15,910 bases of DNA from a virus (lineage: Duplodnaviria; Heunggongvirae; Uroviricota; Caudoviricetes). The stretch spans positions 1 to 15,910 of the IMG/VR virus record IMGVR_UViG_3300006056_000031; one strand, 5' to 3'. Shown here in pieces: positions 1-15,910 of the stretch (the stretch's first letter is position 1; every line of letters begins with the position of its first letter). The position numbers and the translations under genes are program-made. The notes below the pieces were generated by a model. The model was not told the DNA's origin. It saw only the letters and a list, made by a program, of their open reading frames with translations, and made no database searches.

Positions 1-1
1 C

Positions 2-103
2 TGCTAACGATTTGCAGCTTGGCGTTCGGTTTTTGGCTTACCGAAATGTTCAAGTTTACCACAATACTAATAGCCAAAAACTGACGCTAAGGTGCTGTTA
101 TAG
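2..103. repeat. attC-like hairpin site 1
   Basis: TGCTAAC (2-8), 5-nt spacer GATTT, left arm GCAGCTTGGCGTTCGGTTTTTGGCT (14-38) complementary to right arm AGCCAAAAACTGACGCTAAGGTGC (72-95) with one extra T in the left arm, then T-GTTATAG (97-103). Confidence 0.85.
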
Positions 104-148
104 CCAGTGCTTTTAATGGAATTATTAACAATTAAACAAATATAAAAA

Positions 149-547
149 ATGGAAAAGATTTTAAGAATTGAAGAAACAACCTTCAAAAAAACAAAAGACG
201 ATTGGCAATCATTTGAAGGTTTCCAAATCATAACGGATTTACAAACTATCCAAATTGGAATTAGCAACGGTCAATCTTGTTGTGAAAATTTTGGATGTAT
301 AATCACCAACGATGAAACCAAAGAATTTATTGGTGCGGAATTAAAGTCATTGGCAATTGTTGATAATGCCTTGAATAATAAAAAGATTGAAGAATTGGAA
401 TATTTGGATAGCGGTGGGGCAATGTTTGTAAATCTTGAAACAAGCGAGGGTTTACTTCAATTCGTTGCCTATAATGCACATAATGGATATTACGGACACG
501 AAGCAGTTTTAGTCAGCAAGCAACTTAATCATGAAGAGGGTCTTTAG
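149..547 (+). CDS. Cassette ORF, hypothetical protein (132 aa, QSCCE motif)
   Basis: ORF with A-rich leader; bounded by inverted repeats 97-110 and 547-560. Confidence 0.85.
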   Translation: MEKILRIEETTFKKTKDDWQSFEGFQIITDLQTIQIGISNGQSCCENFGCIITNDETKEFIGAELKSLAIVDNALNNKKIEELEYLDSGGAMFVNLETSEGLLQFVAYNAHNGYYGHEAVLVSKQLNHEEGL

Positions 548-553
548 CATTGG

Positions 554-685
554 CTATAACGTTATTCAGCTTGTAGTCAGGCGTGGAATAGAAGCGTAAA
601 TTTTCGGATTAGAAACAAGTATTAAAAAACACGCAAGCGATTGGATAAAGCCTAAAGCCACGCTTGCTACAAACTGATGTTAGGC
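554..685. repeat. attC-like hairpin site 2 (132 bp)
   Basis: CTATAAC (554-560), spacer GTTAT, arm TCAGCTTGTAGTCAGGCGTGG (566-586) pairs with CCACGCTTGCTACAAACTGA (658-677) with one extra T, then T-GTTAGGC (679-685). Confidence 0.85.
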
Positions 686-686
686 G

Positions 687-908
687 ATGTATTTTATTAT
701 GAGTATTTTAGAAGCAGGAACAGAAATTAAAGAAAAACCAACAGTAGGTCAAGAATTTATGGAATGGGCTGAACAGTATTGGTTATTAGACAAATTAGTT
801 AAAATTGAAAAACCTGACGAGTTTGCAGGAGAAAAATGTGATTATGATTATATGCGTAATATTTTCATTGAAAAGATAAACGGAATTATTAAAGACAGGT
901 TGGGTTAA
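687..908 (+). CDS. Cassette ORF, hypothetical protein (start 687 or 699)
   Basis: 73 aa ORF bounded by inverted repeats 679-693 and 907-921; no recognisable domain. Confidence 0.75.
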   Translation: MYFIMSILEAGTEIKEKPTVGQEFMEWAEQYWLLDKLVKIEKPDEFAGEKCDYDYMRNIFIEKINGIIKDRLG

Positions 909-914
909 TATATC

Positions 915-1046
915 GCCTAACGATTCTCGGCTTTGTTTAGTGCGGGATTATGAAAACGAAATTATCAACTTAAAAATAAATTACAATGGAAAAAGAAAAT
1001 TTGAATGAAGCAGAAAAACCCGCATTGAACAAAACCGATGTTAGCA
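915..1046. repeat. attC-like hairpin site 3 (132 bp)
   Basis: GCCTAAC (915-921), spacer GATTC, arm TCGGCTTTGTTTAGTGCGGG (927-946) pairs with CCCGCATTGAACAAAACCGA (1019-1038), then T-GTTAGCA (1040-1046). Confidence 0.85.
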
Positions 1047-1177
1047 GTAGTGCCAAACGCAGAAATGAAATAACAAAGATACTATATCGAAATTCAACTG
1101 ATGATTCAGAGTGTATGAGAATTAGATTTGAGGACATTCAAAATATAATTGACTTGCTGAATGATTTATACGACTAA
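986..1177 (+). CDS. Cassette ORF, hypothetical protein starting inside hairpin site 3
   Basis: ATG 986 lies in the hairpin loop after an A-rich leader; the right arm and core encode PALNKTDVSSSA; stop abuts inverted repeat 1178-1192. Confidence 0.7.
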   Translation: MEKENLNEAEKPALNKTDVSSSAKRRNEITKILYRNSTDDSECMRIRFEDIQNIIDLLNDLYD

Positions 1178-1185
1178 GGCATTAC

Positions 1186-1317
1186 TGCTAACGGACTGCG
1201 TGTATAAGAAGTGGCGTAGAACTTACCAAAACATTACAAAAATTAACGAATTATAAATTAATAAATAACCAATCCAAAAATGCCGATAGTAGCCATTTTT
1301 TATACCCGCTGTTATCT
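1186..1317. repeat. attC-like hairpin site 4 (132 bp)
   Basis: TGCTAAC (1186-1192), spacer GGACT, arm GCGTGTATAAGAAGTGGC (1198-1215) pairs with GCCATTTTTTATACCCGC (1292-1309), then T-GTTATCT (1311-1317). Confidence 0.85.
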
Positions 1318-1346
1318 TTCAGTTGCGGGTTTTAAAACAAAACAAT

Positions 1347-1535
1347 ATGACAGTAAAAAATCTAATTAAGGAACTTCTTGATTATAATATGGATGCAGAA
1401 GTTCAAGTAATTGCACATTGCCAAAAGTATGATTATAGCATAACTATTGGAGGTTCAGAAGGAGTTGAAAAGAACAACACTAAAGAAGTTTCTTTTTATG
1501 TTGATGAATTGTGTAATAATGAAAATATAAATTAA
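1347..1535 (+). CDS. Cassette ORF, hypothetical protein (MTVKNLIKELLDY...)
   Basis: ATG 1347 after an A-rich leader is preferred over the TTG at 1323, which lies inside the inverted repeat. Confidence 0.75.
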   Translation: MTVKNLIKELLDYNMDAEVQVIAHCQKYDYSITIGGSEGVEKNNTKEVSFYVDELCNNENIN

Positions 1536-1536
1536 A

Positions 1537-1713
1537 ATGAAAGTTAATAAATTGGAAATTGGTAAAAACTATTACCATGGTAATTGCAAAAAGAAATTTA
1601 AGTGTGTAGAATTAAATACAAACATTGATGAAAACCAATCTGATTTTGTTGATTATAAAAAAACATTACACAGGTTTTACAATGACGATATGTACTTAAA
1701 TAAGCAAATGTAG
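1537..1713 (+). CDS. Second ORF of the last cassette, hypothetical protein (58 aa; absent from ORF track)
   Basis: Manual translation MKVNKLEIGKNYYHGNCKKKFKCVELNTNIDENQSDFVDYKKTLHRFYNDDMYLNKQM*; starts 1 nt after the previous stop, and its TAG overlaps inverted repeat 1713-1727. Confidence 0.7.
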   Translation: MKVNKLEIGKNYYHGNCKKKFKCVELNTNIDENQSDFVDYKKTLHRFYNDDMYLNKQM

Positions 1714-1720
1714 CAATTGA

Positions 1721-1778
1721 AGATAACTATTATATATACGCAACTTTTTATAAAACATCAATTATCAATAAGTTATAT
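1721..1778. other. Integrase-proximal att-like site without hairpin (candidate attI equivalent)
   Basis: AGATAAC (1721-1727) ... GTTATAT (1772-1778), only 58 bp, no long internal stem, ends 1 nt before the integrase ATG at 1780. Confidence 0.55.
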
Positions 1779-1779
1779 T

Positions 1780-2583
1780 ATGAAAAATCAAAAAATTATA
1801 AAGATTTGCGAAGGAAAGTTTATATATCTAAACTACTCGTCTAGAACAAGAGACAACTACTTATCCCATATAAAGCATTTTTTAGAAAGTCTAGGTGATA
1901 AACAAATTATACATTGTAATTCTTCTGATTTTCAATCTTACTTGGAAACTTATAACTTCACTTCAGTATCACAACAAAATCAAGTAATCAATGCTATTAA
2001 GTTTTTATATAGAGAAGTATTATGTAAAAAATACGACAAAGTCTCATTCAAAAGACCCAAAGCAGAAAAGAAACTACCTAGAGTTATTGATGGTGATTTT
2101 ATCAAACAGCAGCTTTCAAAGATAAAAAACCTAAAACACAAAACAATACTAACCTTAACATACTCAGTAGGATTGAGGGTGTCGGAAGTTGTTAATTTAA
2201 AAATTGAGGATATTGATTCTAAAAGGATGTTGATTCATATTAAAAACGCAAAAGGGAGAAAGGACAGAATTGTACCTCTTTCCCAAAACGTCCTAGAAAT
2301 ACTCAGGGTGTATTACCAACAATATAAACCAAATCAATTTTTATTCAATGGTCAAAATTCAATACAGTATTCAATAGGTAGTTGTCAAAAAATCTACAAA
2401 AAATATATAGATTCTAATTCATCAATACACACTCTAAGACATTCTTCCTTTACTAATCTACTTGAATCGGGTACAGATTTAAGGATAATACAAAAAATAG
2501 CAGGGCATTCCTCCTCAAAGACTACCGAAATCTACACACACGTTTCTAACAATCTACTTAGTAAGATTAAACTACCAATATAA
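1780..2583 (+). CDS. Tyrosine recombinase/integrase (integron-integrase/Xer-like, no IntI insertion)
   Basis: Catalytic set GLR, KGRKDR, HTLRH, AGH, TEIYTHV intact; N-terminal SAM-like helical domain (QNQVINAIKFLY). ATG 1780 preferred to TTG 1717. Confidence 0.95.
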   Translation: MKNQKIIKICEGKFIYLNYSSRTRDNYLSHIKHFLESLGDKQIIHCNSSDFQSYLETYNFTSVSQQNQVINAIKFLYREVLCKKYDKVSFKRPKAEKKLPRVIDGDFIKQQLSKIKNLKHKTILTLTYSVGLRVSEVVNLKIEDIDSKRMLIHIKNAKGRKDRIVPLSQNVLEILRVYYQQYKPNQFLFNGQNSIQYSIGSCQKIYKKYIDSNSSIHTLRHSSFTNLLESGTDLRIIQKIAGHSSSKTTEIYTHVSNNLLSKIKLPI

Positions 2584-4025
2584 TGACCACAAAGAAAAAG
2601 AAAAAACCAATAGTTGATGTAGATGTTCTTAATTCTGACCAAAAGGAAGCTTTTGAGGAATTAAGGGACTTTATATGCGACAGGGATGATGAGAATGTTT
2701 ATGTCCTCAAAGGATGGGCAGGTACAGGTAAGACCTTCTGTATAAGTATTCTTGTTAGATACATTCTGGAGGTGGTTCATCCCAAGAGTGCTTGGTATAA
2801 AATTGCTGTGACCGGACCAACTAATAAATCGGTTCGTGTTATAAAAAAAACTAGCAATCTAAGAAATCCAAGAGTTACTTTTCAAACCATACATAAACTT
2901 CTTGGTCTAACTGAGAAGATAACCAATGACGGACAACAAGTTTTTGTGAATCAGGAAAAAAACTTCAAACCACAGATCAACTCAATTAAGCTTCTAATTA
3001 TAGATGAGGTTTCCATGCTTAATGATGATCTTTTTCACGAGATCCTAAAATATAGAGACAAGCTAAAGATTATATGTATGGGAGATCCTGCACAGATACC
3101 CCCAGTTGGTAAACCTGATTGCATTCCATTTAGAGACGAGTTAGCAGATTCTTACGGGATAAAAACACTGCAACTCAAAAAGATAATGAGACAGAAGGAA
3201 GGTAATGCCATCATAGATGCATCTGTACTTATCCGGGAAGATCTTTGGTCGGAAAGAAATCCGGTTAATCCTGTCACCTCCTTAAATTCACTTGGTGAGG
3301 GTGTTGAATTTCTAAACCTTAATGATGGTGAAACAAGGAAGGGATTTGGTGATATACTTGCCAAATATTTTAAATCCGAAGAATTCAAAGGTGATTCAGA
3401 ATACTGTAAGATTATAGCATGGAGAAACAAGACCGTTTCCAGTATGAATAACATTGTTAGAAGGATCATATTTGGCGAGGATGAATGTAGAACCAAGATA
3501 CTTGTTGGTGAAAAACTAATTGCCAATTCCCCTGTTATAATACAGGGAAATCTTGTATTATTTAATACGAACGATGAGTTCTCAGTTGAGTCTACCAAAA
3601 TAAAGGAGATGAATATGGTTCTAAAAACATTCTTGCCACCTATAGAGGTGAAACTCAAGTTCTATGATGCGGTAGTTACGTATCTTGACGATGAGGACGA
3701 AATTGAAAAAACCTCCATAGAAATACTGCACGAGGATAGCGAAGCTGAATTTTCCAAAATAGCAAATCTTCTTAAGCTGAAGGCCATAGAAAAGAAGGGC
3801 AGGGACAAAAGCTGGATTGACTATTATGATTTTCTAAGAAACTTTGCTGATGTAAATTTTGGGTATTGCATCACCGCGCATAAATCGCAGGGGAGTACTT
3901 ATAACACATCTTTTGTGCTGGAGGATGATATAGATCAGAACTATAATGTGGTTGAGAGAAACCGAATCAAATACACTGCTTATACAAGATCGAGCAAAAA
4001 AGTCTACGTTTTGAAAAGATTTTAA
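2583..4025 (+). CDS. SF1B DNA helicase, T4 Dda/RecD2-like
   Basis: Walker A GWAGTGKT, Walker B LIIDEVSM, GDPAQIPPV, IMRQ, ITAHKSQGST, YTAYTR motifs. Confidence 0.9.
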   Translation: MTTKKKKKPIVDVDVLNSDQKEAFEELRDFICDRDDENVYVLKGWAGTGKTFCISILVRYILEVVHPKSAWYKIAVTGPTNKSVRVIKKTSNLRNPRVTFQTIHKLLGLTEKITNDGQQVFVNQEKNFKPQINSIKLLIIDEVSMLNDDLFHEILKYRDKLKIICMGDPAQIPPVGKPDCIPFRDELADSYGIKTLQLKKIMRQKEGNAIIDASVLIREDLWSERNPVNPVTSLNSLGEGVEFLNLNDGETRKGFGDILAKYFKSEEFKGDSEYCKIIAWRNKTVSSMNNIVRRIIFGEDECRTKILVGEKLIANSPVIIQGNLVLFNTNDEFSVESTKIKEMNMVLKTFLPPIEVKLKFYDAVVTYLDDEDEIEKTSIEILHEDSEAEFSKIANLLKLKAIEKKGRDKSWIDYYDFLRNFADVNFGYCITAHKSQGSTYNTSFVLEDDIDQNYNVVERNRIKYTAYTRSSKKVYVLKRF

Positions 4026-4078
4026 TTTGGTGAATAGTGAGAATGTTACAGCAATTCAACGGTAGCGGGAATATGCTA

Positions 4079-5011
4079 TTATCTCTTTTGGTTTTGAGCC
4101 ACTAATTGTTGTAGCTTTTTTATATTTTGAGATTCCTGAGAATATTGATTTTGATATTGTTTTGTTTGGAATTCTCTTGGTACGATATTACCAGGTCTCC
4201 ATCCTTTATCCCAAGATTGATTTAATAACTTGTTATCTTCCTTGGTTCCATTGCTACCAAAAGAAATTTTTACTAAATCCCAATCATACCCTTCAGATTC
4301 CGATTTAGTTTTTGGTGTATCTTTTTGTGCATGGTCATATCCCTTAGAATATCCAACACCGGCAGCTCCATATGCTGCGATTGGTTTAGCTACGTTTTTA
4401 AATGATTTTGCTACACCTTGTTTTTTTAAAGTTCCCTTAGCCGCTTTAGTCCCAGATTTAATAGTTGCTGATTCTCCAATTTTTTTCATTTCCGACTGTA
4501 TCAATTTTCTATGCTGTGTAATTTTGCTCACAACTTCCAATTCAGCGGATTGTAATTTTTTACCGAGTGATATTTTTTTTCCAATTTCCCCCAGAGCTTT
4601 TTGTCCCCATTTGGATAGTCCCACTTTACTTGCTAATCCATCAATAGCTGGAATCAAAGAAAAGAGTGCAATCAATCCTGCTGTTTTTTTATCCCCCTCA
4701 TTATAGTATAATTTGGCATCATATAATGCAATACTAGTGGAAAGTAAAGGCCCGACGAAAGGAATAAAAGCGGTTCCAATTTCTAGAATTGTTAAAATTT
4801 TATGTTTATCCTTTGGATTATAGAACCCATTAACCGATACTCCCGCTGGTTCATTTTTAATTCCACCCTCTTCCTCATAATCATTACTTCTTTTCTCTTC
4901 ATCTTTAGTGCGTTTTCTGTGTGGATATAATTTATCATCTTCAGGGTCAAATTCAGGGTCGGATTTTTCAAGTAAACCCTCATATTGTGTTAATGTCATT
5001 ACATGTTTCAT
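4079..5011 (-). CDS. Hypothetical protein with hydrophobic hairpin; putative virion/ejected protein
   Basis: Long ORF, ATG 5011 (MKHVMTLTQYEGLLE) preferred to TTG 5020; apolar segment ILEIGTAFIPFVGPLLSTSIALYDA...AGLIALFSLIP. Confidence 0.7.
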   Translation of the reverse strand: MKHVMTLTQYEGLLEKSDPEFDPEDDKLYPHRKRTKDEEKRSNDYEEEGGIKNEPAGVSVNGFYNPKDKHKILTILEIGTAFIPFVGPLLSTSIALYDAKLYYNEGDKKTAGLIALFSLIPAIDGLASKVGLSKWGQKALGEIGKKISLGKKLQSAELEVVSKITQHRKLIQSEMKKIGESATIKSGTKAAKGTLKKQGVAKSFKNVAKPIAAYGAAGVGYSKGYDHAQKDTPKTKSESEGYDWDLVKISFGSNGTKEDNKLLNQSWDKGWRPGNIVPREFQTKQYQNQYSQESQNIKKLQQLVAQNQKR

Positions 5012-5020
5012 AATATGCAA

Positions 5021-5974
5021 TTATTTTGTGGATGACCAAAAATTCTTCCCATTCGCATACATACTATTACCATCTGTAGGAAATATGGAATTTAGATTAT
5101 CTTCAACTGATTTTGAAGGGATCGGAAAAGCTGTGGTTTTACCTCTTTCATTCATATATTTCTTAATTATTTCATTTGGCCTATTAAAACCCCCCCAATA
5201 GTTGTTTGTTACCGCGTCAACCACATCCCTGTCTGTTTTTACTATTTCCCTGCTATTTGGATTATCTGGTAAAATCTCCTTCATTCTTTTATATAAGATT
5301 TTAAGATATTCCTTTGTTTCTGGTAACATTTTATTAAAGATGTCGTCTGTTATTACACTATGCCTTTTACCCTTAGACTCGTAAAATTTTTGGTCAAGCC
5401 AACCCGCAAGTTTAAAACTTTCATCCCCCCCAGCCATTTTAAATGAACCCGTGCCAATCGCTCCCGCAGTGGATGCTACCGGTTTAGTGGATGTTTTATT
5501 TGCTGTTTTTGTGGCTATTTTACCACCACCATTTTCAAGCCTAGTTATTATACCATCCAACAACTTCTCAATATTTCCTCTAAAATTTGAACCATTATGG
5601 AATTTTTCAGGTAGTAAATTTAGGTATTCATCCATATTAGATTTGGTAATCTTACCAGCTAATGCTAAATCCAAAATTGACTTTATTGTTGATGTTGGTA
5701 TCTCCACACCAATTGAGGATCTTAGATATTGTTGTCCTGATTTGGTTATAAGAACTTTCTCGGTTGCTGATGTAATTTGAGCAAAAAAACTCTCTATATT
5801 GTCAATCTTATCCGCAAAGATTCTCTCTAATTTTTTAGCAGTTTGCGCACCAAATAGTTTCATCAGTGTGGATGCTAATTCTTCAAGCAACAAATTATAC
5901 TCAGATTCCCGAACTAGGTAGGATTCATTTACGTAATTTTGAAAATTATAAATTTTAGTATTCACCATGGACAT
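5021..5974 (-). CDS. Hypothetical protein, putative virion protein
   Basis: 317 aa ORF, preceded by GATATATA motif; no recognisable catalytic motif. Confidence 0.75.
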   Translation of the reverse strand: MSMVNTKIYNFQNYVNESYLVRESEYNLLLEELASTLMKLFGAQTAKKLERIFADKIDNIESFFAQITSATEKVLITKSGQQYLRSSIGVEIPTSTIKSILDLALAGKITKSNMDEYLNLLPEKFHNGSNFRGNIEKLLDGIITRLENGGGKIATKTANKTSTKPVASTAGAIGTGSFKMAGGDESFKLAGWLDQKFYESKGKRHSVITDDIFNKMLPETKEYLKILYKRMKEILPDNPNSREIVKTDRDVVDAVTNNYWGGFNRPNEIIKKYMNERGKTTAFPIPSKSVEDNLNSIFPTDGNSMYANGKNFWSSTK

Positions 5975-5985
5975 TTTTATTTTAT

Positions 5986-5993
5986 TATATATC
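5986..5993 (-). promoter_or_regulatory. GATATATA motif, candidate late promoter
   Basis: 11 nt upstream of ATG 5974; same octamer precedes genes at 9886 and 14883. Confidence 0.4.
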
Positions 5994-6027
5994 CTCCAAA
6001 TTATTTTTATATCTCGAAAGAATTTAT

Positions 6028-6035
6028 TATATTTG
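6028..6035 (+). promoter_or_regulatory. Bacteroidota-type -7 promoter box TAnnTTTG
   Basis: TATATTTG in the divergent intergenic region, 18 nt upstream of ATG 6054; no clear -33 TTTG seen. Confidence 0.55.
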
Positions 6036-6053
6036 CAATATAAAAATCAAGAG

Positions 6054-6515
6054 ATGGATAAGGAATTACAAGAATCCGAAAATAGAGCATTGAATTACAT
6101 AAGATCAACTAAGGAATACTCTGATCTGAATTTTCAAGACAACAATAGTAAAATATGGGTTGCTCATAATTCTCTAATTTCAGCTGCCAAAATATACATC
6201 ATTGACAATTACAAATCCATTGATGACTACATGGATCTGGATCTTATATTAAGAAGCGGTGCAACCGGGAAGAGATTCTATTTTGGTCCAAAAAGAAACA
6301 GAAATGTTTCAAGATCAAAGGAGTTGACCAGAATATTAAAAGATCTAGATAACCAAACTATAGTTATAGAAAGCTTTGATGAAGCGATCTATGATTGGTC
6401 AGATGGGGATTTTTCGGTAGTATTCAACGGAGAATCATACAATTGGATAGATGATGATTCGGTTATAAGTATAGCGTCTTATATAGAAAAAAAGTTAGAA
6501 GAAAATGAGATATAA
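6054..6515 (+). CDS. Hypothetical protein
   Basis: ATG 6054 chosen because it follows the promoter box; track start 5967 overlaps the divergent gene. Confidence 0.8.
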   Translation: MDKELQESENRALNYIRSTKEYSDLNFQDNNSKIWVAHNSLISAAKIYIIDNYKSIDDYMDLDLILRSGATGKRFYFGPKRNRNVSRSKELTRILKDLDNQTIVIESFDEAIYDWSDGDFSVVFNGESYNWIDDDSVISIASYIEKKLEENEI

Positions 6516-7611
6516 TATTGAAGAAGTAAACAGCTACATAGCTAAGGGATTGGTTGATAAATGTCAACATAAAGAACTTCCCATTGCAATCTATAAATAT
6601 TCACGTAATTGCCAATTTGAATGGATCTGGGATGAGGTTACTATGAACATGAGGGGTACCGTTCTTGATGGGGAGGGAAATCTTATAGCACGGACTTTTC
6701 CAAAGTTCTTCAATATCGATGAGTCTAATATTCCAAACCTTCCGTTTGAGGTTTTTGAGAAACTTGATGGGTCATTAGGGATTTTATTTTTTTATGCCGG
6801 GGAATGGCATTTAGCAACTCAGGGATCTTTCTATTCTGATGTTGCTATTTATGGACAGGAGATACTAAAGAGAAATGAAACTTACAAGAGTGTTTTCTCC
6901 GAGAAGTTTACATTTCTTTTTGAAATTATATACCCGCAAAACAGGGTCGTTGTATCCTATGGCGATGATGAAAAATTGGTTTTATTAGCTGCTTTTAAGA
7001 CAGATTCCGGTCGGGAGGTACAGTATGATGAATTAAAAAGAGTTGCTGAAAGGACTGGATTCGAATGTGTCAAAAGATATGATGGAATAAAGGATCTTAA
7101 AAAGATAAAATCCATAATAAAACATAATCAGGAGGGATTCGTTATAAGATTCTCAGATGGTAGCAGGGTAAAAGTAAAAGGGGAGGAATATGTTAGACTT
7201 CATGGAGTTTTAACCGGATTCTCAAATTTGGATATCTGGAGATGTCTAAAAGAAGGCACCGATTACAGATCAATGATGGTTGATGTGCCTGATGAATATG
7301 ATGTCTGGGTTACAAATGTTGAGCAGGATCTTCTATCAAATTTTAATTTTATAGAAGCAACGATAAAGGCTGAATATAATCTATTAATCAAAAAGATCAA
7401 AAGTCAAACGCCAACTGAGGAGGAAAGATTAGATAGAAATTCTCCAGTTCTTAAAGCCTATAACAAGGAGTTTTTTGAGTTGGTGGAGGAGCACAGATTA
7501 GCAGGATATCTATTGGATCATAATAGTCGTAAGGATTATTCTAAATCCATATGGAACCAAATAAGACCAGATTACCAGAAACCATTTTGGGAGGATTACC
7601 CAAAAAAATAA
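6505..7611 (+). CDS. RNA ligase, T4 Rnl1 (RnlA)-like
   Basis: Nucleotidyltransferase motif I EKLDGSLG, ATQGSF, FEII, EGFV, RVKVKGEEY. Confidence 0.9.
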   Translation: MRYNIEEVNSYIAKGLVDKCQHKELPIAIYKYSRNCQFEWIWDEVTMNMRGTVLDGEGNLIARTFPKFFNIDESNIPNLPFEVFEKLDGSLGILFFYAGEWHLATQGSFYSDVAIYGQEILKRNETYKSVFSEKFTFLFEIIYPQNRVVVSYGDDEKLVLLAAFKTDSGREVQYDELKRVAERTGFECVKRYDGIKDLKKIKSIIKHNQEGFVIRFSDGSRVKVKGEEYVRLHGVLTGFSNLDIWRCLKEGTDYRSMMVDVPDEYDVWVTNVEQDLLSNFNFIEATIKAEYNLLIKKIKSQTPTEEERLDRNSPVLKAYNKEFFELVEEHRLAGYLLDHNSRKDYSKSIWNQIRPDYQKPFWEDYPKK

Positions 7612-7618
7612 AAATATA

Positions 7619-7936
7619 ATGATAACACCAGTACCATTCTTTTTATTAAATCAAAAGAGAAATAGCAAGGTTTCAAAACCTAAAATAGAAACACTAAACA
7701 AATACACCAAACTCTCTCCTGACGAGTTTATCAAACTTGTTGCAAAAAGAACAGAGGTTTCTGGGTTGACCGAATCTATTGGTTATATCAACAATTGGTA
7801 TGGATTCGACGACTTGAAGCACGAGGAAAAAATTAATTTCGTTAGAAGAATTGAAACGCCTGAATATTACAGTCTGGTTTCAAGGGTTAAAAGAATCATT
7901 AAAAAAGTCAGAAATGGAAGAGGTAATAAGTCATAA
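7619..7936 (+). CDS. Hypothetical protein
   Basis: 105 aa ORF in a tightly packed operon. Confidence 0.7.
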   Translation: MITPVPFFLLNQKRNSKVSKPKIETLNKYTKLSPDEFIKLVAKRTEVSGLTESIGYINNWYGFDDLKHEEKINFVRRIETPEYYSLVSRVKRIIKKVRNGRGNKS

Positions 7937-8150
7937 GGTAAGGGGTAAGGTTGGAGAACTCCTATGTAAGAATGGATTCGAAGATAACGGGAGAGGATTT
8001 TTCAATGAATACTGTTTAGTTATTGTGGAGGAGGATCATTATTATGTGGAGATGGACCAGGGACATATGTTTAGCCAGGATCTTAGTATCTATTGGCTGA
8101 TAGGGGTTCTTACTTATAACGGACTAATGGATAAAAATTATAAACAATAA
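7914..8150 (+). CDS. Hypothetical protein
   Basis: ATG 7914 (MEEVISHK) preferred to TTG 7851 to limit overlap. Confidence 0.7.
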   Translation: MEEVISHKVRGKVGELLCKNGFEDNGRGFFNEYCLVIVEEDHYYVEMDQGHMFSQDLSIYWLIGVLTYNGLMDKNYKQ

Positions 8151-8189
8151 CCTGGATTTCACCCAGGGCTAATATAAAAATATAAAACT

Positions 8190-8846
8190 ATGAAAATAAT
8201 ATTACAAGGACATCAGAAAATATTCTGGACATCTGATTCGCATTACAATCACTCTGGAATTTGTAGTGCTACTTCACACTGGCCTGAGGGAAGAGGAACT
8301 AGAAAATTCAATTCATTAAACGAAATGAATGACAGACTAGTATACGAGATTAATGCATCAGTAGGACCAAATGATATACTGATTCACCTAGGTGACTGGA
8401 GCTTTGGTGGTATCGAATCTATCTCGGAATTTAGAAACAGAATAAACTGTAAAACTATTCACCTATTTCTGGGAAATCATGACCATCATATAAAAAATAA
8501 CAGAGATAACGTACAGGATCTTTTTGCTAGTGTCAATAAACTTGAAACTATCGAACTTCGAGTACCACAGGGGAAGGAAACTAAGAAATACACATTTGAG
8601 TGTTGTCATTTTCCGATAGCTAGCTGGGATGGACTTGGGAAGGGATACTCGCATTTGCATGGACATGTTCATCTTCCTGGACATTTAAAGATACACAAGG
8701 GGAGAGCTATGGATGTTGGTGCGGATGGGAACAACTACAAGCCATATTCATTGAATGAAATATTGAAGGCATTGGAGGGAAGACCAAAAATGCACTTATC
8801 CCTACCAAAGGATCACCACACGGACGAAAACTACCAAGGAAATTAA
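8190..8846 (+). CDS. Calcineurin-like metallophosphoesterase
   Basis: Motifs SDSH, HLGD, LGNHD, CHFP, HGHVH, DVG. Confidence 0.92.
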   Translation: MKIILQGHQKIFWTSDSHYNHSGICSATSHWPEGRGTRKFNSLNEMNDRLVYEINASVGPNDILIHLGDWSFGGIESISEFRNRINCKTIHLFLGNHDHHIKNNRDNVQDLFASVNKLETIELRVPQGKETKKYTFECCHFPIASWDGLGKGYSHLHGHVHLPGHLKIHKGRAMDVGADGNNYKPYSLNEILKALEGRPKMHLSLPKDHHTDENYQGN

Positions 8847-8865
8847 CAATTAAAATAAAAATAAA

Positions 8866-9030
8866 ATGAAAGCAAATCTGTATTTAATAGCTCTAAGCAT
8901 CGTATTGTTACCAGCAATATATTTTATAAACGACGGTGAAAAACACTGGACCCAATTAATCCCTCTTGGATATTTAGCATATTCGTTTATAGTTGGTACG
9001 ATATCAGCAATCAGAGGAAATAGAAAATAG
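8866..9030 (+). CDS. Small two-TM membrane protein (54 aa; absent from ORF track)
   Basis: Manual translation MKANLYLIALSIVLLPAIYFINDGEKHWTQLIPLGYLAYSFIVGTISAIRGNRK*; A-rich leader; fills the intergenic gap. Confidence 0.75.
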   Translation: MKANLYLIALSIVLLPAIYFINDGEKHWTQLIPLGYLAYSFIVGTISAIRGNRK

Positions 9031-9034
9031 AAAT

Positions 9035-9502
9035 ATGCTCTATAGAATAAAAATAGGATCTCATGGGAGTTCATGGATACCTTCTATTACTTTTAGAGAA
9101 TCTATATCAGGATCTTTTTCCTTCCTTGGTGATTTTGAATATGTTATAGATTCCCAGGAGGACACTAATAAGTTAGTAGGGCTTTCCGATGGATGGACAC
9201 ACCACAAAAATTCGATAAGAATAGGATGGAGATGGAATAATGGACTGGAGTTAATGACCATAGTCTATAGGAATGGGGTAAGAGAAATAAAGTCGATGGG
9301 CTACATTGAAGCGAATAAGAAATATAAGTATCAGATACAAATTTTTGACGACTTTTATGGAATAAAGGTAACATCAGGAGATACCACATATGCGGAGCTA
9401 CTTGATAGATCCACAAAATGGAATTTCATAAGGGTTATACTAAAACCTTATTTTGGTGGAAAAAATAAAGCACCTAAGAGTTTTGATATATTGCTAGATT
9501 AA
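9035..9502 (+). CDS. Hypothetical beta-rich protein
   Basis: ATG 9035 follows the previous stop; aromatic beta-strand pattern (SIRIGWRW, PYFGG). Confidence 0.75.
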   Translation: MLYRIKIGSHGSSWIPSITFRESISGSFSFLGDFEYVIDSQEDTNKLVGLSDGWTHHKNSIRIGWRWNNGLELMTIVYRNGVREIKSMGYIEANKKYKYQIQIFDDFYGIKVTSGDTTYAELLDRSTKWNFIRVILKPYFGGKNKAPKSFDILLD

Positions 9503-9508
9503 AAAATC

Positions 9509-9814
9509 ATGGGAGAAATTAATATAGACGGAAGAGTCCTTAAGTACCAATTGATGGGTGACTGTAGTGAATATGATTCATGGGAATGGACTGAATTTTA
9601 CGAGGGAACAGAGACAGTAACCAAAAGAGTAAGATCCGGCTGGTTCGATTTATTTGGTACGAGAGTACAAGTTGAGGAACCGAAGCTGGTCTTTACTATA
9701 AACATGTCTTGTGAGAATGTTAGAATAACTAAGGGGGAATGGAGAAAAAGAATACTAAGAGAATTAGCTCTTCTTAATAGGAGAGGGGAATTAGAAAGGG
9801 GAGAATTAATATGA
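9509..9814 (+). CDS. Hypothetical protein
   Basis: 101 aa ORF; stop overlaps the next ATG (ATGA). Confidence 0.75.
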   Translation: MGEINIDGRVLKYQLMGDCSEYDSWEWTEFYEGTETVTKRVRSGWFDLFGTRVQVEEPKLVFTINMSCENVRITKGEWRKRILRELALLNRRGELERGELI

Positions 9815-9852
9815 AAGAACTATTTTTATTAAGAGGATTACCAGGAATTTAA
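9811..9852 (+). CDS. 5' fragment of split AAA_33/N4BP2-like P-loop kinase (MKELFLLRGLPG)
   Basis: ATG AAA GAA CTA TTT TTA TTA AGA GGA TTA CCA GGA ATT TAA gives the beta-strand and first half of a Walker A motif. Confidence 0.85.
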   Translation: MKELFLLRGLPGI

Positions 9853-9853
9853 C

Positions 9854-9872
9854 GATATATACTATATAAATA
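9854..9872 (+). promoter_or_regulatory. GATATATA plus TATAAATA, candidate late promoter for the inserted endonuclease
   Basis: GATATATA 9854-9861 and T4-late-type TATAAATA 9865-9872 upstream of ATG 9886. Confidence 0.4.
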
Positions 9873-9885
9873 TATTTAATATCTA

Positions 9886-10761
9886 ATGGAAGCTTTTTTT
9901 AAACAATGTCCTTCATGTAATTGTAGAATGGAATATAAGCAAAAATATTCACTAAATTATTCTATCAAGCATAATAAATTATGTAGAGCATGCTCTGCTA
10001 AAAATGCTGCATCTATTTTTCCGGATAGGGGTTGGAAAAAATTGAATGATGATGTTAAGTCTGGAAAAAAACCAAATGGATTTAAAGATAAAACGCACAA
10101 CAAAGATGCTAAATTAAAAATGTCTCTTGCTGATAAATCATATACTAAGACCATTAATTTTAAAAAAACCATGTCTAACGTAACTTCTGGTAAAAATAAT
10201 GGGATGTATGGTAAATCTTTCTATGATAGTTGGGTTGATAAATATGGTGAAAAAATTGCAGATTTGAAATTAATCGAGCATAAAGCTAAACAATCAGTTA
10301 ATAGTTCAGGTAAAAAAAATGGTATGTATGGTAAATTATCTCCGATAGGTAGCGGTAATGGATGGTCTGGATGGTACAAAGGATGGTTTTTTAGAAGTTT
10401 ACTAGAATTATCATATATGATAAACGTGATCGAAAGGTTTAATTTGGAATGGAAAAATGCTGAATATAAAAAATATACAGTAGAATATTTTAATGATGAT
10501 GTTTGCAGGACTTATAGAGCGGATTTTATAATTGAAGACAAATATATGGTTGAGGTTAAACCAAAAAAATTACACAATTCATACTCTGTAATTTTAAAAA
10601 TGGAAGCTGCTAAGTTATGGTGCATTAAAAATAATTTTGTATACAAATTAACAAGTTGCCCAAAATTATCAGATAATGAAATTTTAAATTTAATAGAAGA
10701 TAAAAAAATAATATTAACAAATAGATATAAAACAAAATTTGATGAGCAATTTAAAAAATAG
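9886..10761 (+). CDS. Putative homing endonuclease: CxxC zinc ribbon + NUMOD3-like repeats + TnsA-like PD-(D/E)xK domain
   Basis: CPSC...CRAC; GKNNGMYGK/GKKNGMYGK repeats; RSLLE...YRADF...VEVKP...KMEAAKLWC. Confidence 0.8.
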   Translation: MEAFFKQCPSCNCRMEYKQKYSLNYSIKHNKLCRACSAKNAASIFPDRGWKKLNDDVKSGKKPNGFKDKTHNKDAKLKMSLADKSYTKTINFKKTMSNVTSGKNNGMYGKSFYDSWVDKYGEKIADLKLIEHKAKQSVNSSGKKNGMYGKLSPIGSGNGWSGWYKGWFFRSLLELSYMINVIERFNLEWKNAEYKKYTVEYFNDDVCRTYRADFIIEDKYMVEVKPKKLHNSYSVILKMEAAKLWCIKNNFVYKLTSCPKLSDNEILNLIEDKKIILTNRYKTKFDEQFKK

Positions 10762-10799
10762 TAGCCCTCGCAAGGAACTTTTCCTTTTACGAGGGCTAC
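10761..10799. other. Strong RNA/DNA hairpin at the 3' end of the insert
   Basis: GTAGCCCTCG (10761-10770)/CGAGGGCTAC (10790-10799) perfect 10-bp stem enclosing AAGGAA-CTT-TTCCTT. Confidence 0.8.
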
Positions 10800-10810
10800 C
10801 GTAACCAGGA

Positions 10811-11176
10811 GCTGGTAAAACAACATTAGCTAAAATGTTAGTTGGAGAGAAAGACTATTGTCACAAAGAAGCTGATATGTATTTCATGGATCCCTATGGT
10901 AATTACAGATTTAATACTATGGAGTTAAAAGATGCTCATAAATGGTGTCAGGATGAAATGGAGTTTGTTATGACATATGAACATTCACCTGTAGTGGTAT
11001 CAAACACATTCACGCAGGAATGGGAAATGCAGCCATACTATGATTTAGCAGAAAAATATGGATATCGGGTTCATTCCTTGGTTATCGAAAATAGACACAG
11101 TGGCATCAATTCCCACGGTGTTCCCGATGAAACGCTGGAGAAAATGAAAAATAGATTTGATTTAAAACTCATATAA
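10811..11176 (+). CDS. 3' fragment of split AAA_33/N4BP2-like kinase
   Basis: AGKTTLAKM...EADMYF...VVVSNTF...HGVPDETLEKMKNRF; the frame is closed upstream by TAA at 10802-10804. Confidence 0.85.
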   Translation, partial: AGKTTLAKMLVGEKDYCHKEADMYFMDPYGNYRFNTMELKDAHKWCQDEMEFVMTYEHSPVVVSNTFTQEWEMQPYYDLAEKYGYRVHSLVIENRHSGINSHGVPDETLEKMKNRFDLKLI

Positions 11177-11916
11177 TGGAAGAAAAATATTTAACGCTTG
11201 ACGAAGCTAAGAAGAAATACGGAAGAACAGAAAATGGTAGATTCTATGGTGTGCATAAGATATTCAACATCCTCATAAACGATAAGCCTCATGGGGTTTA
11301 TAGTATTGATGGATATGAACACCAGCTAGGAAAAAACAATGGTGGACCTGCTGGATGGTGGCTTGATTATTCAACCGAGGTAAATCCGGAGAGAGAATTG
11401 GTTCCATATCTTGACCGGGGTGTTCACCGGATTTGTTGGGAGATCAAATACAAGCAGAGCAATAGAACCAAACATAAATGGGGAGAATGGAGAATTAATG
11501 CCACCGGGCTTTGCGAGATTTACGCAAACGGTAGACATGTTTACACTATGGTTAACTCGGATTTAGGTTCTGCACTTTCACATGCTTATGTTATGACGGA
11601 AAAACTTTTGCATCATGTTTATGATTTTATAAATCCGGAGAATGATAACGGCAGAAAGATCTATTACTACGGATTACCTGCAACAATTAGAGCTGGATAT
11701 GAGCCGGGTGAGATTAAAGTTTACCCTGACTATGAAAAGATACCAGAGGATAAATGGTGGAAAATATACGAGGAGAGAAAAACCCCTGCGGAAAACCTTG
11801 GATCCAAGGAGGATCGGGAAATGGAGGAATCTGATGTACAGGAACACAGGGATTATGGTTCAATTAATCATGGTGATGCTTTCTGGGATGGTATGATAAA
11901 CTGGTTTAGGAAATAA
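11176..11916 (+). CDS. Hypothetical protein
   Basis: 246 aa ORF, TAATG-coupled on both sides. Confidence 0.8.
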   Translation: MEEKYLTLDEAKKKYGRTENGRFYGVHKIFNILINDKPHGVYSIDGYEHQLGKNNGGPAGWWLDYSTEVNPERELVPYLDRGVHRICWEIKYKQSNRTKHKWGEWRINATGLCEIYANGRHVYTMVNSDLGSALSHAYVMTEKLLHHVYDFINPENDNGRKIYYYGLPATIRAGYEPGEIKVYPDYEKIPEDKWWKIYEERKTPAENLGSKEDREMEESDVQEHRDYGSINHGDAFWDGMINWFRK

Positions 11917-12323
11917 TGGGAATATTAGAGAAATCTGCCATTCTGGAATTAGATTGTCCAGGTCTAGATAAGGACCAATTAGATGTTATGGTTACAGAAT
12001 GTGAAAGAATTAAAAATGGGCTACTATTATTATTTACTGAATTTGTTTATCGACTACCATCTTCTGACATATTAAGTGAAATTTGTTTGCAGATTTCCAA
12101 CCTATTAGGTTTAACTAATAGCAATTTTTATGTTATATTAGAGGGCAGATGGGTATCAACCGAGGATATTAATGGTGATCTTAATTTTAAAGTACTTGAT
12201 GACCGCATTATTGATTTTGTATCACTGGTTGAGGCAATTAAAATAAAGACGAAACAAGGTGATGTTTTTCCTCTAGAAAGATATCTGGAGATATCAATAA
12301 TATTTTGGAAAATAACGAAGTAA
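11916..12323 (+). CDS. Hypothetical protein
   Basis: 135 aa ORF coupled to the upstream gene. Confidence 0.7.
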   Translation: MGILEKSAILELDCPGLDKDQLDVMVTECERIKNGLLLLFTEFVYRLPSSDILSEICLQISNLLGLTNSNFYVILEGRWVSTEDINGDLNFKVLDDRIIDFVSLVEAIKIKTKQGDVFPLERYLEISIIFWKITK

Positions 12324-12327
12324 AAAA

Positions 12328-13113
12328 ATGCCATATAAGAAAATATCGGGGATTTATATTATAACTAATACTATAAACGGTAAGGTTTATATTGGTAGTG
12401 CAAAATCTATCTTTAAAAGATTGCATCGTCATAGATACATGTTGGATAAAAATAGGCACACGAATAGACATATGCAATCATCATATAACAAGTATGGATC
12501 TTCTAGCTTTACTTTTGAAATAGTTGAGATAACAATTCTTGATAAAAAAATAATGGAGGATAGGGAGGAATTTTATATATTATCATTTAGATCAAACGAT
12601 AAAAAATTTGGTTATAATAAAAGATTAGATTGTAGAACAAACCTGGGAATTAATGCATCCGATGAATCAAGAGAAAAAATGAGGATTTCTCATATTGGAA
12701 TTAATCAAAGCAGTGAAGCAAAGAAAAAAATAGCAATTTCGCGATATAAGGAGATCTATAAGCTAGATTCTTTAGGAATTATACTTTGTAAATATGATTC
12801 TATAATTTCAGCTTCCTCTGAAAATGATATATGTAAACAGTCCATTTCTTCTGCTTGTATAGGAAAAATCCCACATGCTGGAGGATATTATTGGTCATTT
12901 GTTGATTGTTATGATGCATCAGATGAATTTGGGGAGATAAAAAGAACATATAAACAAAAAAAATTCATTTATAAAAATACGAAAACACTTGAAACGTATA
13001 GTAAATTGTGCGAAGTTGCAAAGATTCTTGGTAAGACCAGTTCCAATTTAACTAACGCATTTAATGGGAGAATTAAAAACAATACAAAATTTATAAGATA
13101 TGAAAGAGAATAA
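12328..13113 (+). CDS. Free-standing GIY-YIG homing endonuclease with NUMOD3/NUMOD1-like DNA-binding modules
   Basis: SGIYIITNTINGKVYIGSA, R..H, FTFEIVE, YN motifs; SDESREKMRISH and KEIYKLD...YWSF modules. Confidence 0.9.
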   Translation: MPYKKISGIYIITNTINGKVYIGSAKSIFKRLHRHRYMLDKNRHTNRHMQSSYNKYGSSSFTFEIVEITILDKKIMEDREEFYILSFRSNDKKFGYNKRLDCRTNLGINASDESREKMRISHIGINQSSEAKKKIAISRYKEIYKLDSLGIILCKYDSIISASSENDICKQSISSACIGKIPHAGGYYWSFVDCYDASDEFGEIKRTYKQKKFIYKNTKTLETYSKLCEVAKILGKTSSNLTNAFNGRIKNNTKFIRYERE

Positions 13114-13525
13114 CAGTGGCTTTAATTTGTTTCTTGATGACATACGCCACCCGTATGATTGCATAAGCTATATGCCATCTCCTGGAATATATTCAAAATA
13201 CGTGTGGGAAACGGTCCGCAGTTACGATGAATTCATTTCATTCATCTCGGAACATGGTCTGCCGGATCTAATATCCTTTGATCACGATCTAGCGGACGAG
13301 CATTATAATCCCGATATGTACAACGGACAGGAGATCTACAACAAACACTATTCCGAATTCAAAGAGAAGACAGGAATGGACTGTGCAAAATGGCTTGTCG
13401 ACTATTGCATGGATAATAAAAAGGAACTCCCTGATTTTGTCGTACATTCAATGAATCCAGCGGGAGCTGAGAACATCAAACAACTATTAACACAATTTAA
13501 AGAATTTCAACATAAAAATCAATAA
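13100..13525 (+). CDS. Cyclic-phosphate-processing receiver-like (REC-fold) protein
   Basis: LFLDDIR, VRSYDEF, ISFDHDL, TGMDCAKWL, VHSMNPAG pattern. Confidence 0.8.
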   Translation: MKENNSGFNLFLDDIRHPYDCISYMPSPGIYSKYVWETVRSYDEFISFISEHGLPDLISFDHDLADEHYNPDMYNGQEIYNKHYSEFKEKTGMDCAKWLVDYCMDNKKELPDFVVHSMNPAGAENIKQLLTQFKEFQHKNQ

Positions 13526-13526
13526 C

Positions 13527-14204
13527 ATGGATTACGGAGCAGAATTTAGAAAGTACGCACAAAGCGAGATGGGGGTTAGCTCATTAACAATGGACTATCA
13601 CGCAAAACAAATCGAGGCATCAATGACGCCAATGATTTTAGAGGAGAGGGAATTAAGGGTCACGCAGATGACTGTTTTTGATAGGTTGATGATGGACAGA
13701 ATCCTTTGGGTTGCTGGTCCGGTTAACGATAGGATGTCAACAATAGTTCAAGCACAACTTATGTTCTTGGATTCTGTTGAAGTTAAAGACATTACCATGC
13801 ACATTGATTCACCAGGTGGATCAGTTAAGAGCGGATTGAGTATGGTTGATGTTATGGATTATATCAAGTCCGATATTGCTACGATCAACACAGGTATGGC
13901 TGCTTCCATGGGATCGGTTCTTTTGGGAGCTGGAACAAAGGGAAAAAGATCATCACTAAGATTTAGTAAAGTTATGCTTCACCAATCTAGTGGGGGATTC
14001 ATAGGAAATATTCAGGATGCTGAAATTAACTGGAAAGAATGGAAAGAGGTAAACTCCATCTTGTTTGACCTACTCGGCGATTTCTGTGATAAGGATCCAG
14101 AACAAGTTAAGACGGATTCTCAAAGAGATTTCTGGATGAGTGCACAGGAGGCAGTTGATTACGGAATCATTGACGAGATCGTAAAGGGTAAAAGATTAAG
14201 ATAA
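13527..14204 (+). CDS. clpP: ATP-dependent Clp protease proteolytic subunit
   Basis: IDSPGGSV, GMAASMG (catalytic Ser), MLHQ (His), RDFW (Asp). Confidence 0.95.
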   Translation: MDYGAEFRKYAQSEMGVSSLTMDYHAKQIEASMTPMILEERELRVTQMTVFDRLMMDRILWVAGPVNDRMSTIVQAQLMFLDSVEVKDITMHIDSPGGSVKSGLSMVDVMDYIKSDIATINTGMAASMGSVLLGAGTKGKRSSLRFSKVMLHQSSGGFIGNIQDAEINWKEWKEVNSILFDLLGDFCDKDPEQVKTDSQRDFWMSAQEAVDYGIIDEIVKGKRLR

Positions 14205-14614
14205 TGGAAAGAAAGATACCAAGTAATTTAGGAGCGCAGATTCTACATCCTTTAATCGGGTGGGGTGATGAAATGCACACAGAGGAAAGGTATATGGAGA
14301 AGATACAGGAATTTGAAAGAAAGGTTGAGAAATCAATCATGGAAACTTTTAAAAGAATTGATATCCAAGGGATCGTTAAAACCGATCCCTATTCTCTTCC
14401 ATATAAGAAAGAAATTAAGGTGACATTAAGAGGTGAAAGCTATCTCAATGGACCATATGAGATCTTCAGGGTTGTTAGACCCATCATAAAGGAATTACTT
14501 AACGAGAATCTGTACAAAATTAGATTCTATGTTTATATTGACATCACAACAGAATCAAGATTTCCTTTAGGGATGGGCGAGATTAATTATTATTTTAGAT
14601 ATTATGAGCACTAA
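14204..14614 (+). CDS. Hypothetical protein
   Basis: 136 aa ORF, TAATG-coupled. Confidence 0.75.
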   Translation: MERKIPSNLGAQILHPLIGWGDEMHTEERYMEKIQEFERKVEKSIMETFKRIDIQGIVKTDPYSLPYKKEIKVTLRGESYLNGPYEIFRVVRPIIKELLNENLYKIRFYVYIDITTESRFPLGMGEINYYFRYYEH

Positions 14615-14867
14615 AGAAAAAGCAATAGAAAAAAGACATAGGTTTGTTATAGATTCAGTAAAAACATTTGGTCTGAATATCGATAATGATCAATGGGCAG
14701 AGAGAGGATGGATTAGAATAGAAAGCTTTGATCATAAAGATCTAAGACCTTTAATAATATATCAGGATGAGAATGAGGATGCAATTCTGGAGGAGCTTAG
14801 GAGTTATATGTATACCATAGGGGCTCATAGTTTTAAATTAAGGTTTAAAAGTTTATTTGATTTATAA
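14604..14867 (+). CDS. Hypothetical protein
   Basis: 87 aa ORF overlapping the previous stop. Confidence 0.75.
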   Translation: MSTKEKAIEKRHRFVIDSVKTFGLNIDNDQWAERGWIRIESFDHKDLRPLIIYQDENEDAILEELRSYMYTIGAHSFKLRFKSLFDL

Positions 14868-14870
14868 ATG

Positions 14871-14878
14871 GATATATA
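14871..14878 (+). promoter_or_regulatory. GATATATA motif, candidate late promoter
   Basis: 4 nt upstream of ATG 14883, preceded by TATAAAT. Confidence 0.4.
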
Positions 14879-14882
14879 GTGG

Positions 14883-15611: not shown

Positions 15612-15910
15612 GCTATAAATCTTTCTCCTGATATTTCTGATAGATCTATCTCTTTCCCGTCTATTTTTATGGAAAGTATATTGATTTTCGATCCTTTTAC
15701 TAATCTTATTTCTTTTTCCTCGAAGGATACTGGCTCAACGTTGAGCCTTATGGTTGGATACCAATCAACCGAGGTTTCGTCTACTTCAGCTTCCATTATA
15801 GTCGTGAAAGGTAAATCTGTATTGTAACCCCAATGTGGCTCTGCACCTTCTGAATCCCACGACCAGTATATTCCAAGATGTTTTACTTGTGAAGATAATC
15901 TGGATTCCCA
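15608..15910 (-). CDS. C-terminal part of a hypothetical protein, open to the window edge
   Basis: Frame has no stop from 15910 to 15608: WESRLSSQVKHLGIYWSWDSEGAEPHWG...EEKEIRL... Confidence 0.75.
   Translation of the reverse strand, partial: WESRLSSQVKHLGIYWSWDSEGAEPHWGYNTDLPFTTIMEAEVDETSVDWYPTIRLNVEPVSFEEKEIRLVKGSKINILSIKIDGKEIDLSEISGERFIA

Follow-up and report, generated by a model that had tools for sequence, protein, structure and literature searches.

The first part of this phage contig raises a simple question. Four similar hairpin sites are lined up ahead of a tyrosine recombinase gene: are they the attC sites of an integron-like system, and does their lopsided geometry amount to a recognition code of its own? 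The window, meaning the whole stretch of DNA that was analysed, makes up positions 1-15,910 of an IMG/VR viral contig of 79,910 nt, which is rated 30% complete. Past the array, the gene content is that of a typical large lytic phage, with a Dda-like helicase, an Rnl1-type RNA ligase, a phosphoesterase and homing endonucleases. Near-identical DNA was found in wastewater and freshwater metagenomes from 13 studies.

We consider it probable that a large wastewater/freshwater phage carries an integron-like gene-cassette platform, with the four sites as its attC-equivalents. At the system level, the parts of an integron are all present, with a recombinase gene (1780-2583), a platform (1721-1779) and at least four cassette units, whose mobility was shown by comparison.

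Array layout and site geometry in the window

The features of the array are listed below, all on the + strand. Site lengths were taken from 7-nt core to 7-nt core, and cassette units were drawn from one left core to the next left core.

2-103, +: site s1, 102 bp; TGCTAAC core, spacer GATTT, 24-nt stem, T before GTTATAG
8-559, +: cassette unit 1, s1 and ORF 149-547 (DUF7448); record 1 of sequencing run X2 spans 5-563
554-685, +: site s2, 132 bp; CTATAAC, spacer GTTAT, T before GTTAGGC
560-920, +: cassette unit 2, s2 and ORF 687-908; in run X2 it stands after unit 3, joined inside TAACG
915-1046, +: site s3, 132 bp; GCCTAAC, spacer GATTC, 23-nt stem, T before GTTAGCA
921-1191, +: cassette unit 3, s3 and ORF 986-1177
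1186-1317, +: site s4, 132 bp; TGCTAAC, spacer GGACT, 18-nt stem, T before GTTATCT
1192-1726, +: cassette unit 4, s4 and ORFs 1347-1535 and 1537-1713
1721-1779, +: attI-like platform; terminal core AGATAAC (TAAC at 1724-1727), hairpin-less, followed by a TAnnATATAT box; ends at the recombinase ATG
1780-2583, +: tyrosine recombinase, 267 aa; catalytic R-K-H-R-H-Y present, without the IntI-specific insertion

The initial annotation had described each of the four sites as AAC, five nucleotides led by a G and an arm, answered on the other side by an arm, a single T and GTT. This description was confirmed. The spacers of s1-s4 are GATTT, GTTAT, GATTC and GGACT, each facing a single T before GTT on the opposite arm, the arms are 18-25 nt long, and all four sites read TAAC ... 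GTTA. The coordinates and lengths given there also hold, with exactly 132 bp for s2, s3 and s4 and 102 bp for s1, where the contig begins 4 nt ahead of the TAAC. The loop of s4 is 76 nt long and A+T-rich. An extra T at stem position 12 is indeed confined to s1 and s2 within the window; a bulge at this position occurs in about 13% of the sites of the wider family, thus the extra T is not a conserved feature.

The 7-nt consensus RYYYAAC/GTTRRRY is complete in the R'' of s3 (GCCTAAC) and in the R' of s2 (GTTAGGC), and partial elsewhere. The sequence that follows the GTT of one site and the sequence that precedes the AAC of the next are complementary over 11-15 nt, and the ends of cassette unit 4 are likewise mutually complementary (1311-1326 and 1713-1727). 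The first 1800 nt contain four matches to the site pattern, all of the class with spacers of 5 and 1 nt (5,1), compared to a mean of 0.01 such matches in 200 shuffles, which excludes chance. The remaining 64 kb of the contig contain one weak look-alike only, at 45917-45970. This lone 54-bp AAC..GTT hairpin outside the window, with 5-vs-1 spacers, may be due to chance or may be a solitary site.

Folding energies of single sites are weak evidence. The top strand of s1 folds at -21.1 kcal/mol (z -3.96) and its bottom strand at -15.3. The folds of s2 and s3 are modestly better than those of shuffled sequences (z -1.8 to -2.1), and the fold of s4 is no better (z +0.49).

Conservation of the site family in viral contigs

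Relatives of the recombinase with 61-88% identity are encoded on at least 227 viral contigs, some of them longer than 300 kb. We fetched 80 of these loci (L002-L081), and the geometry proved to be conserved in their homologous arrays: the 80 viral contigs contain 336 unique sites upstream of their recombinase genes. In 40 of the fetched loci, the density of sites of the same orientation and class was 0.99 per kb in the 6 kb upstream of the int gene, versus 0.025 per kb in the 6 kb downstream.

A spacer of 5 nt facing one of 1-2 nt was present in 220 of the 336 family sites, the most frequent classes being (5,2) with 134, (5,1) with 86 and (6,2) with 22 sites. G directly follows AAC in 295 of the 336 sites (88%), T directly precedes GTT in 307 (91%), and the family consensus of the long spacer is G-K-T-T-N. 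Each site consists of an R box, formed by TAAC/GTTA and 4-8 private flanking bases, a 5-nt bulge beside the AAC that faces only 1-2 nt (T), and a perfect stem of 11-13 bp (L box) ahead of the first irregularity. All four Watson-Crick pair types appear at each stem position, indicating that the structure is kept and the sequence is not, although stem statistics are partly circular, as the site finder demands a good 12-bp stem. An alternative site finder based on free energy, using constrained folds of every AAC..GTT pair, was too noisy, because longer spans always won, and stem scanners were used instead.

The fixed length of 132 bp suggested by the window turned out to be a preferred mode only. 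Lengths in the family are trimodal at 54, 94 and 132 bp, with clusters among the 336 sites at 53-56 (27 sites), 91-98 (92 sites) and 128-137 bp (112 sites). By sequence, the central loops of 113 sites in the 132 class form 70 clusters unrelated to one another. Site lengths thus appear quantised at approximately 54, 94 and 132 bp, in steps of about 38-40 nt, despite unrelated loops. Cellular arrays next to insertion-less recombinases likewise peak at 131-134 bp.

The median cassette unit is 362 bp long. Three orphan N6/N4 DNA methyltransferases and one RNA ligase are among the ten largest cassette proteins, and it is plausible that such cargo represents counter-defence genes. Genes of larger cassettes are located at L052:1208-2053, L034:1494-2288, L030:4586-5302 and L008:828-1895; the RNA ligase carries a PHA02142 OB-fold.

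The recombinase and its relatives

The recombinase has the invariant catalytic residues R133, K158, H217, R220, H243 and Y252 (alignment A1). Integron integrases contain, between patch II and box II, a specific domain of about 35-45 aa with the ALER motif. When aligned with IntI1 of plasmid R46, the recombinase has a gap of 44 columns at the position of this ALER-containing domain. The integron integrase model TIGR02249 matched in two stretches, with 156 bits versus a cut-off of 265, and model positions 181-253 were skipped. In length and domains the recombinase is Xer-like, and its best solved match is the archaeal XerA.

For the maximum-likelihood tree, chromosomal Xer proteins of the same genomes served as outgroup. 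Genuine IntI, cellular insertion-less recombinases linked to arrays (several lineages) and the phage recombinases form a clade with 100/100 support, and Xer stands apart. Within it, genuine IntI is monophyletic and sits on a long stem, and a phage clade (98/94) unites the recombinase of the window with the integrases of the phages Freya and Ingeline. Inside the IntI-containing clade, the insertion-less forms could be either ancestral or secondary. Among the phage isolates in INPHARED, no close relative of the recombinase was found, the best having 38% identity.

The cellular relatives, with 40-51% identity, are mostly from Bacteroidota, but also from a Desulfitobacterium, from Nitrospirae MAGs and from two DPANN archaeal MAGs. 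They likewise lack the IntI insertion. Their arrays lie downstream of the recombinase gene, have the mirrored geometry (1,5) and contain genes that run the usual way. At six of the cellular loci (L121, L131, L149, L157, L158 and L162), the recombinase has an extra N-terminal domain of about 100 aa, which is absent from the phage enzymes; in bacterial and DPANN recombinases this domain shows a conserved I.I.F....IK....W....IP pattern.

The adjacency and co-occurrence of recombinase gene and sites suggest that the insertion-less, IntI-related enzyme acts on the sites next to it.

Lopsided spacers and extrahelical bases in genuine integrons

On the L'' arm, classical attC sites carry two or three extrahelical bases with a stem of 6 bp between them. 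In our stem scanner, the orfD attC of R46 gave a 5x6 spacer and two bulges. The textbook attC has an unpaired spacer of 5-6 nt on each arm (PMC5027507), and the claim that the geometry in the window, with 5 vs 1 nt, differs from the classical one is therefore correct.

For comparison, 401 genomes were sampled from the phylum of Flavobacterium saccharophilum, 113 of which encode a full-length integron integrase above the curated cut-off. We fetched 20 loci with genuine IntI (L177-L196; >400 bits to TIGR02249), and 19 of them have arrays. This comparison is one phylum sample, and its sites form one close sequence family. In 301 small genomes of the class of genome G001 no genuine IntI was found; this was the wrong group and is uninformative.

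The same asymmetry, on the gene strand 1-2 nt after AAC and 5-6 nt before GTT, was present in 11 of the 19 array-bearing loci with genuine IntI, and a symmetric spacer in two others. One of the asymmetric sites reads TAAC-A-stem..stem-GGGTC-GTTA, and its opposite strand gives the phage pattern AAC-G+4-...-T-GTT. Asymmetry is found in every site that is linked to an insertion-less enzyme, be it from a phage or from a cell. Given its presence beside genuine IntI, the 5-vs-1 asymmetry is not private to insertion-less enzymes; the lopsided spacer is a common but little-noted attC design.

The extrahelical bases behave differently. Bulges located 9 and 16 nt after AAC occur in nearly all sites of the true-IntI loci (29 of 40 bulges in one set). 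This 9/16 pattern was absent from the phage sites (0 of 132), 65 of which are without any bulge in the first 16 bp, and it was not found in the arrays beside the cellular insertion-less relatives. Of the features compared, the 9/16 extrahelical bases co-vary with the IntI insertion and the lopsided spacer does not. In the solved IntI-attC complex, as cited in PMC5027507 and PMC8138268, the insertion contacts the extrahelical bases, hence the joint absence of insertion and bases makes sense. The initial proposal of a different recognition code for an insertion-less recombinase is thus upheld in that the enzyme lacks the insertion and the geometry is conserved; its other part, the spacer as the code, conflicts with the same spacer beside full-length IntI.

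Crossover point, cassette exchange and platform

According to three independent comparisons, the crossover falls within the left TAAC core, with a resolution no finer than TAAC(G). Exact swaps and insertions at TAAC were seen in an independent wastewater metagenome of the phage, in sister contigs, and in the cultured Polaribacter phages Freya_1, Freya_6 and Freya_10.

In run X2, record 2 joins window positions 917-1188 straight to 557-922 inside TAACG, and otherwise shows no differences. Cassette units 2 and 3 are thus swapped in the X2 population. Contig ends or joints in four runs fall at 557-565 (s2), 917-922 (s3), 1188-1197 (s4) and 1723 (platform), where the homology of X2 starts, although Logan contigs break at any repeated word and loose ends alone are therefore weak evidence. 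Some contig ends lie at right cores (689, 1310), which is expected if similar hairpins sit on different cassettes. The joints 29-81, 1020-1292 and 1216-1292 were left out, as their sides measure 20-25 nt and may stem from related sites, and stretches of the window that lack contig cover in some runs are uninformative. In contigs of runs X3, X4 and X6, the ends of unit 4 and its complementary flanks are kept and the inside differs or is skipped (joints of 1337-1342 to 1706-1711). The same flanks of unit 4 may carry different cargo.

In the near-identical sister loci L017, L033, L034 and L056, shared blocks start at TAAC and stop at ..TAAC(G). Behind one gene block stands any of three elements, namely the hairpin-less platform or a site of 54 or 195 bp, and two blocks appear in swapped order.

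Freya_1 has an empty platform, ...TTTACAAC/ACCCCTATAAC... (ACAAC/ACCCC), 50 nt before the integrase gene. Exactly at the AAC of this platform, Freya_10 carries an insertion of 4.9 kb of small genes and sites, and the array of Freya_6 is intermediate between the two. The flanks of the three phages are 99.7-100% identical (L198-L201, L084). Isolates of one phage species differ by 0 to 4.9 kb of cassettes. The paper describing the Freya phages does not mention cassette insertion (PMC8776804).

With the crossover in the left TAAC core, a cassette consists of a hairpin and the gene downstream of it. This arrangement allows ORF 986-1177, whose ATG is inside the s3 loop, to start within the hairpin of its own cassette. 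The platform, TAAC/TAnnATATAT, is conserved about 50-58 nt before the recombinase ATG in 33 aligned phage loci. The platform motif TATATACG (window 1728-1740) resembles the commonest stem (L-box) sequence of the family (..TATATACGC-T-GTTA).

Folding strand and gene polarity

The top (coding) strand was the more stable one in 311 of 337 phage sites, with a mean difference of 2.74 kcal/mol, and G.T wobbles in the phage sites are polarised towards it. In the cellular insertion-less arrays, the non-coding strand is favoured. Gene direction and site polarity are opposed in the phage arrays (276:1), versus agreement in the true-IntI arrays (56:2) and in the cellular insertion-less arrays (29:1).

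A canonical attC lies at the 3' end of the cassette gene, its crossover is at G/TT of R', and its bottom strand folds better. The phage sites depart from this polarity, with a crossover at the left TAAC, a favoured top strand and reversed genes. Read as its reverse complement, the locus has the classical order of integrase, primary site and array, the crossover is at G/TT by the long spacer, and all genes are inverted. In this reading the integrase faces away, and the short and long spacers of the sites come in their usual order. Inversion of every cassette gene means that the array is read along with the genes of the phage itself.

The folding bias points to the folded top strand as the likely substrate of recombination. 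In phages this strand is at the same time the sense strand of the mRNA, so that an RNA hairpin could add to this bias.

Proposed mechanism and alternative explanations

As comparison of related DNA shows, recombination joins sites inside the left TAAC(G) core, and the mobile units, each a hairpin with its downstream gene, are shuffled or inserted at the platform about 52 nt upstream of the recombinase gene. The insertion-less recombinase would presumably cut the folded top strand in the 5'-AAC beside the 5-nt bulge, in analogy to IntI on the bottom strand of attC. The loss of the extrahelical bases matches the loss of the protein insertion that reads them.

It could be argued that the 5-vs-1 spacer itself is a new recognition code, evolved for a recombinase without the IntI insertion. 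Every site linked to an insertion-less enzyme is asymmetric, the textbook attC has 5-6 nt per arm, and IntI1 failed on the phage site P12002L_attC1 (see below). We regard this explanation as unlikely, because identical asymmetry stands beside full-length IntI in 11 of the 19 loci sampled, and it is the extrahelical bases whose presence or absence goes with that of the insertion. A similarly low probability applies to a recombinase acting on double-stranded core sites, in the style of Xer/dif or a shufflon, with the inverted repeats as binding arms only. The arms are 54-132 bp apart around unrelated loops, the stems covary while the sequence drifts, and the G.T wobbles are strand-polarised. Moreover, the spacers behind the cut differ between partner sites (GATTT, GTTAT, GATTC, GGACT), so that a full two-strand exchange would create mismatches. 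These points outweigh the Xer-like length and domains of the enzyme, its match to archaeal XerA and the hairpin-less platform next to the int gene, all of which agree with a double-stranded mode.

Junctions within a 4-5 nt core of otherwise unrelated sites, too short for homologous recombination, also bear on the idea that the hairpins are mainly RNA elements (for processing, stabilising or termination) and that the rearrangements arise by homologous recombination between repeats. The hairpins are found just upstream of each ORF, one ORF begins in a loop, and the better-folding strand in phages is the mRNA sense strand, as such elements would have it. However, in the related cellular arrays, which have the same sites, the better-folding strand is antisense to the genes, and the sites are restricted to that side of the recombinase gene which ends in the platform. 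RNA elements are hence a very improbable account of the array, and an integron-like cassette platform is the explanation that we prefer.

Implications

According to current models, integron integrases need an extra domain that reads flipped-out bases in order to choose the DNA strand. The phages offer a natural cassette-moving system with an IntI relative that lacks the domain and sites that lack the bases, which makes strand choice and site recognition directly testable. The non-pathogenic Polaribacter phages Freya_1 (empty), Freya_6 and Freya_10 (filled) provide a cultured bench model. It also follows that phages maintain cassette banks of their own. Furthermore, a symmetric spacer fails to describe many genuine attC sites outside Proteobacteria, and this matters for attC detection tools.

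Taken jointly, the observations allow a tentative reading, which we put forward as a possibility: a separate, perhaps ancestral integron branch, made up of insertion-less IntI relatives that act on hairpins devoid of extrahelical bases, with strand choice by a bulge only, cassettes turned round in phages and a length ruler. If this were true, strand choice would depend solely on a 5-nt bulge of biased sequence, G-K-T-T-N facing a single T. The phages would have turned their cassettes round, making the recombined strand the coding strand. The lengths of 54, 94 and 132 bp would come from a physical ruler, for instance a single-strand-binding protein that covers the loop with zero, one or two footprints.

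Comparison with known systems

The phage arrays share many properties with the attC/IntI systems of class 1, Vibrio and sedentary chromosomal integrons. The sites have AAC/GTT triplets, and a single hairpin holds the R box, the spacer, the L box and a variable loop. Every cassette has its own complementary R-box flanks, one strand folds better than the other, and the crossover is in the AAC beside a 5-nt spacer. The array and a hairpin-less platform lie next to the integrase gene, and the recombinase belongs to the IntI clade. In contrast to integron attC sites, the phage sites have a spacer of 5 vs 1-2 nt and no extrahelical bases at 9 and 16, and in contrast to IntI, the recombinase is without the roughly 44-aa insertion bearing the ALER motif. 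The site is upstream of its gene, the better-folding strand is the coding one, and the array is read towards the integrase gene.

The chromosomal integrons of Bacteroidota with genuine IntI (L182, L184, L185, L190-L194) resemble the phage arrays in their lopsided spacer and in site lengths of 90 and 123-130 bp. Unlike the phage sites, their attC have bulges 9 and 16 nt from AAC and the usual gene polarity, and their integrase contains the insertion.

The 'inverted-integrase' integrons (Treponema type) and the archaeal integrons (Ghaly et al. 2022) resemble the phages in that integrase and cassette genes point the same way. The inverted-integrase layout, int followed by the array, was found in the cellular insertion-less relatives. 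The phages differ from it, as their array precedes the integrase gene, and it is the cassette genes rather than the integrase that are turned round with respect to the polarity of the sites. A dif site is a single site of 28-30 bp with two arms and a central region of 6-8 bp, present once per replicon. The phage arrays, in contrast, contain hairpin sites of 54-132 bp, about one per kb, and their recombinase branches with IntI.

Clusters of attC without an integrase (CALINs) were described in phage genomes by Qi et al. 2023 (PMC9892861). As here, attC-like sites separated small phage genes, and the cargo comprised orphan DNA methyltransferases. Using the published primer, we found that their P12002L_attC1 is a 54-bp site of exactly the type described here, on the gene strand between two methyltransferase genes. 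It was predicted by HattCI and not by INFERNAL, and was the only one of six phage attCs that was not recombined by IntI1 (PMC9892861). This hints that such sites need their own enzyme, P12002L_attC1 being the only experimental hint, one negative result. With a lowered scanner threshold, the A+T-rich DNA of P12002L and of the Ingeline locus yielded mainly noise, and only the site confirmed by the primer was kept. In Qi et al. (PMC9892861), no dedicated recombinase was found and IntI1 alone was tested, and the insertion-less enzyme, the platform and the reversed polarity were not described.

In a limited literature search, in which absence is no proof, we found no paper describing insertion-less integron-like platforms in phages. 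Compared to the known systems, what is unusual in the phage sites is that they are without flipped-out bases, are oriented opposite to their genes, and have an insertion-less relative of the integron integrases as neighbour.
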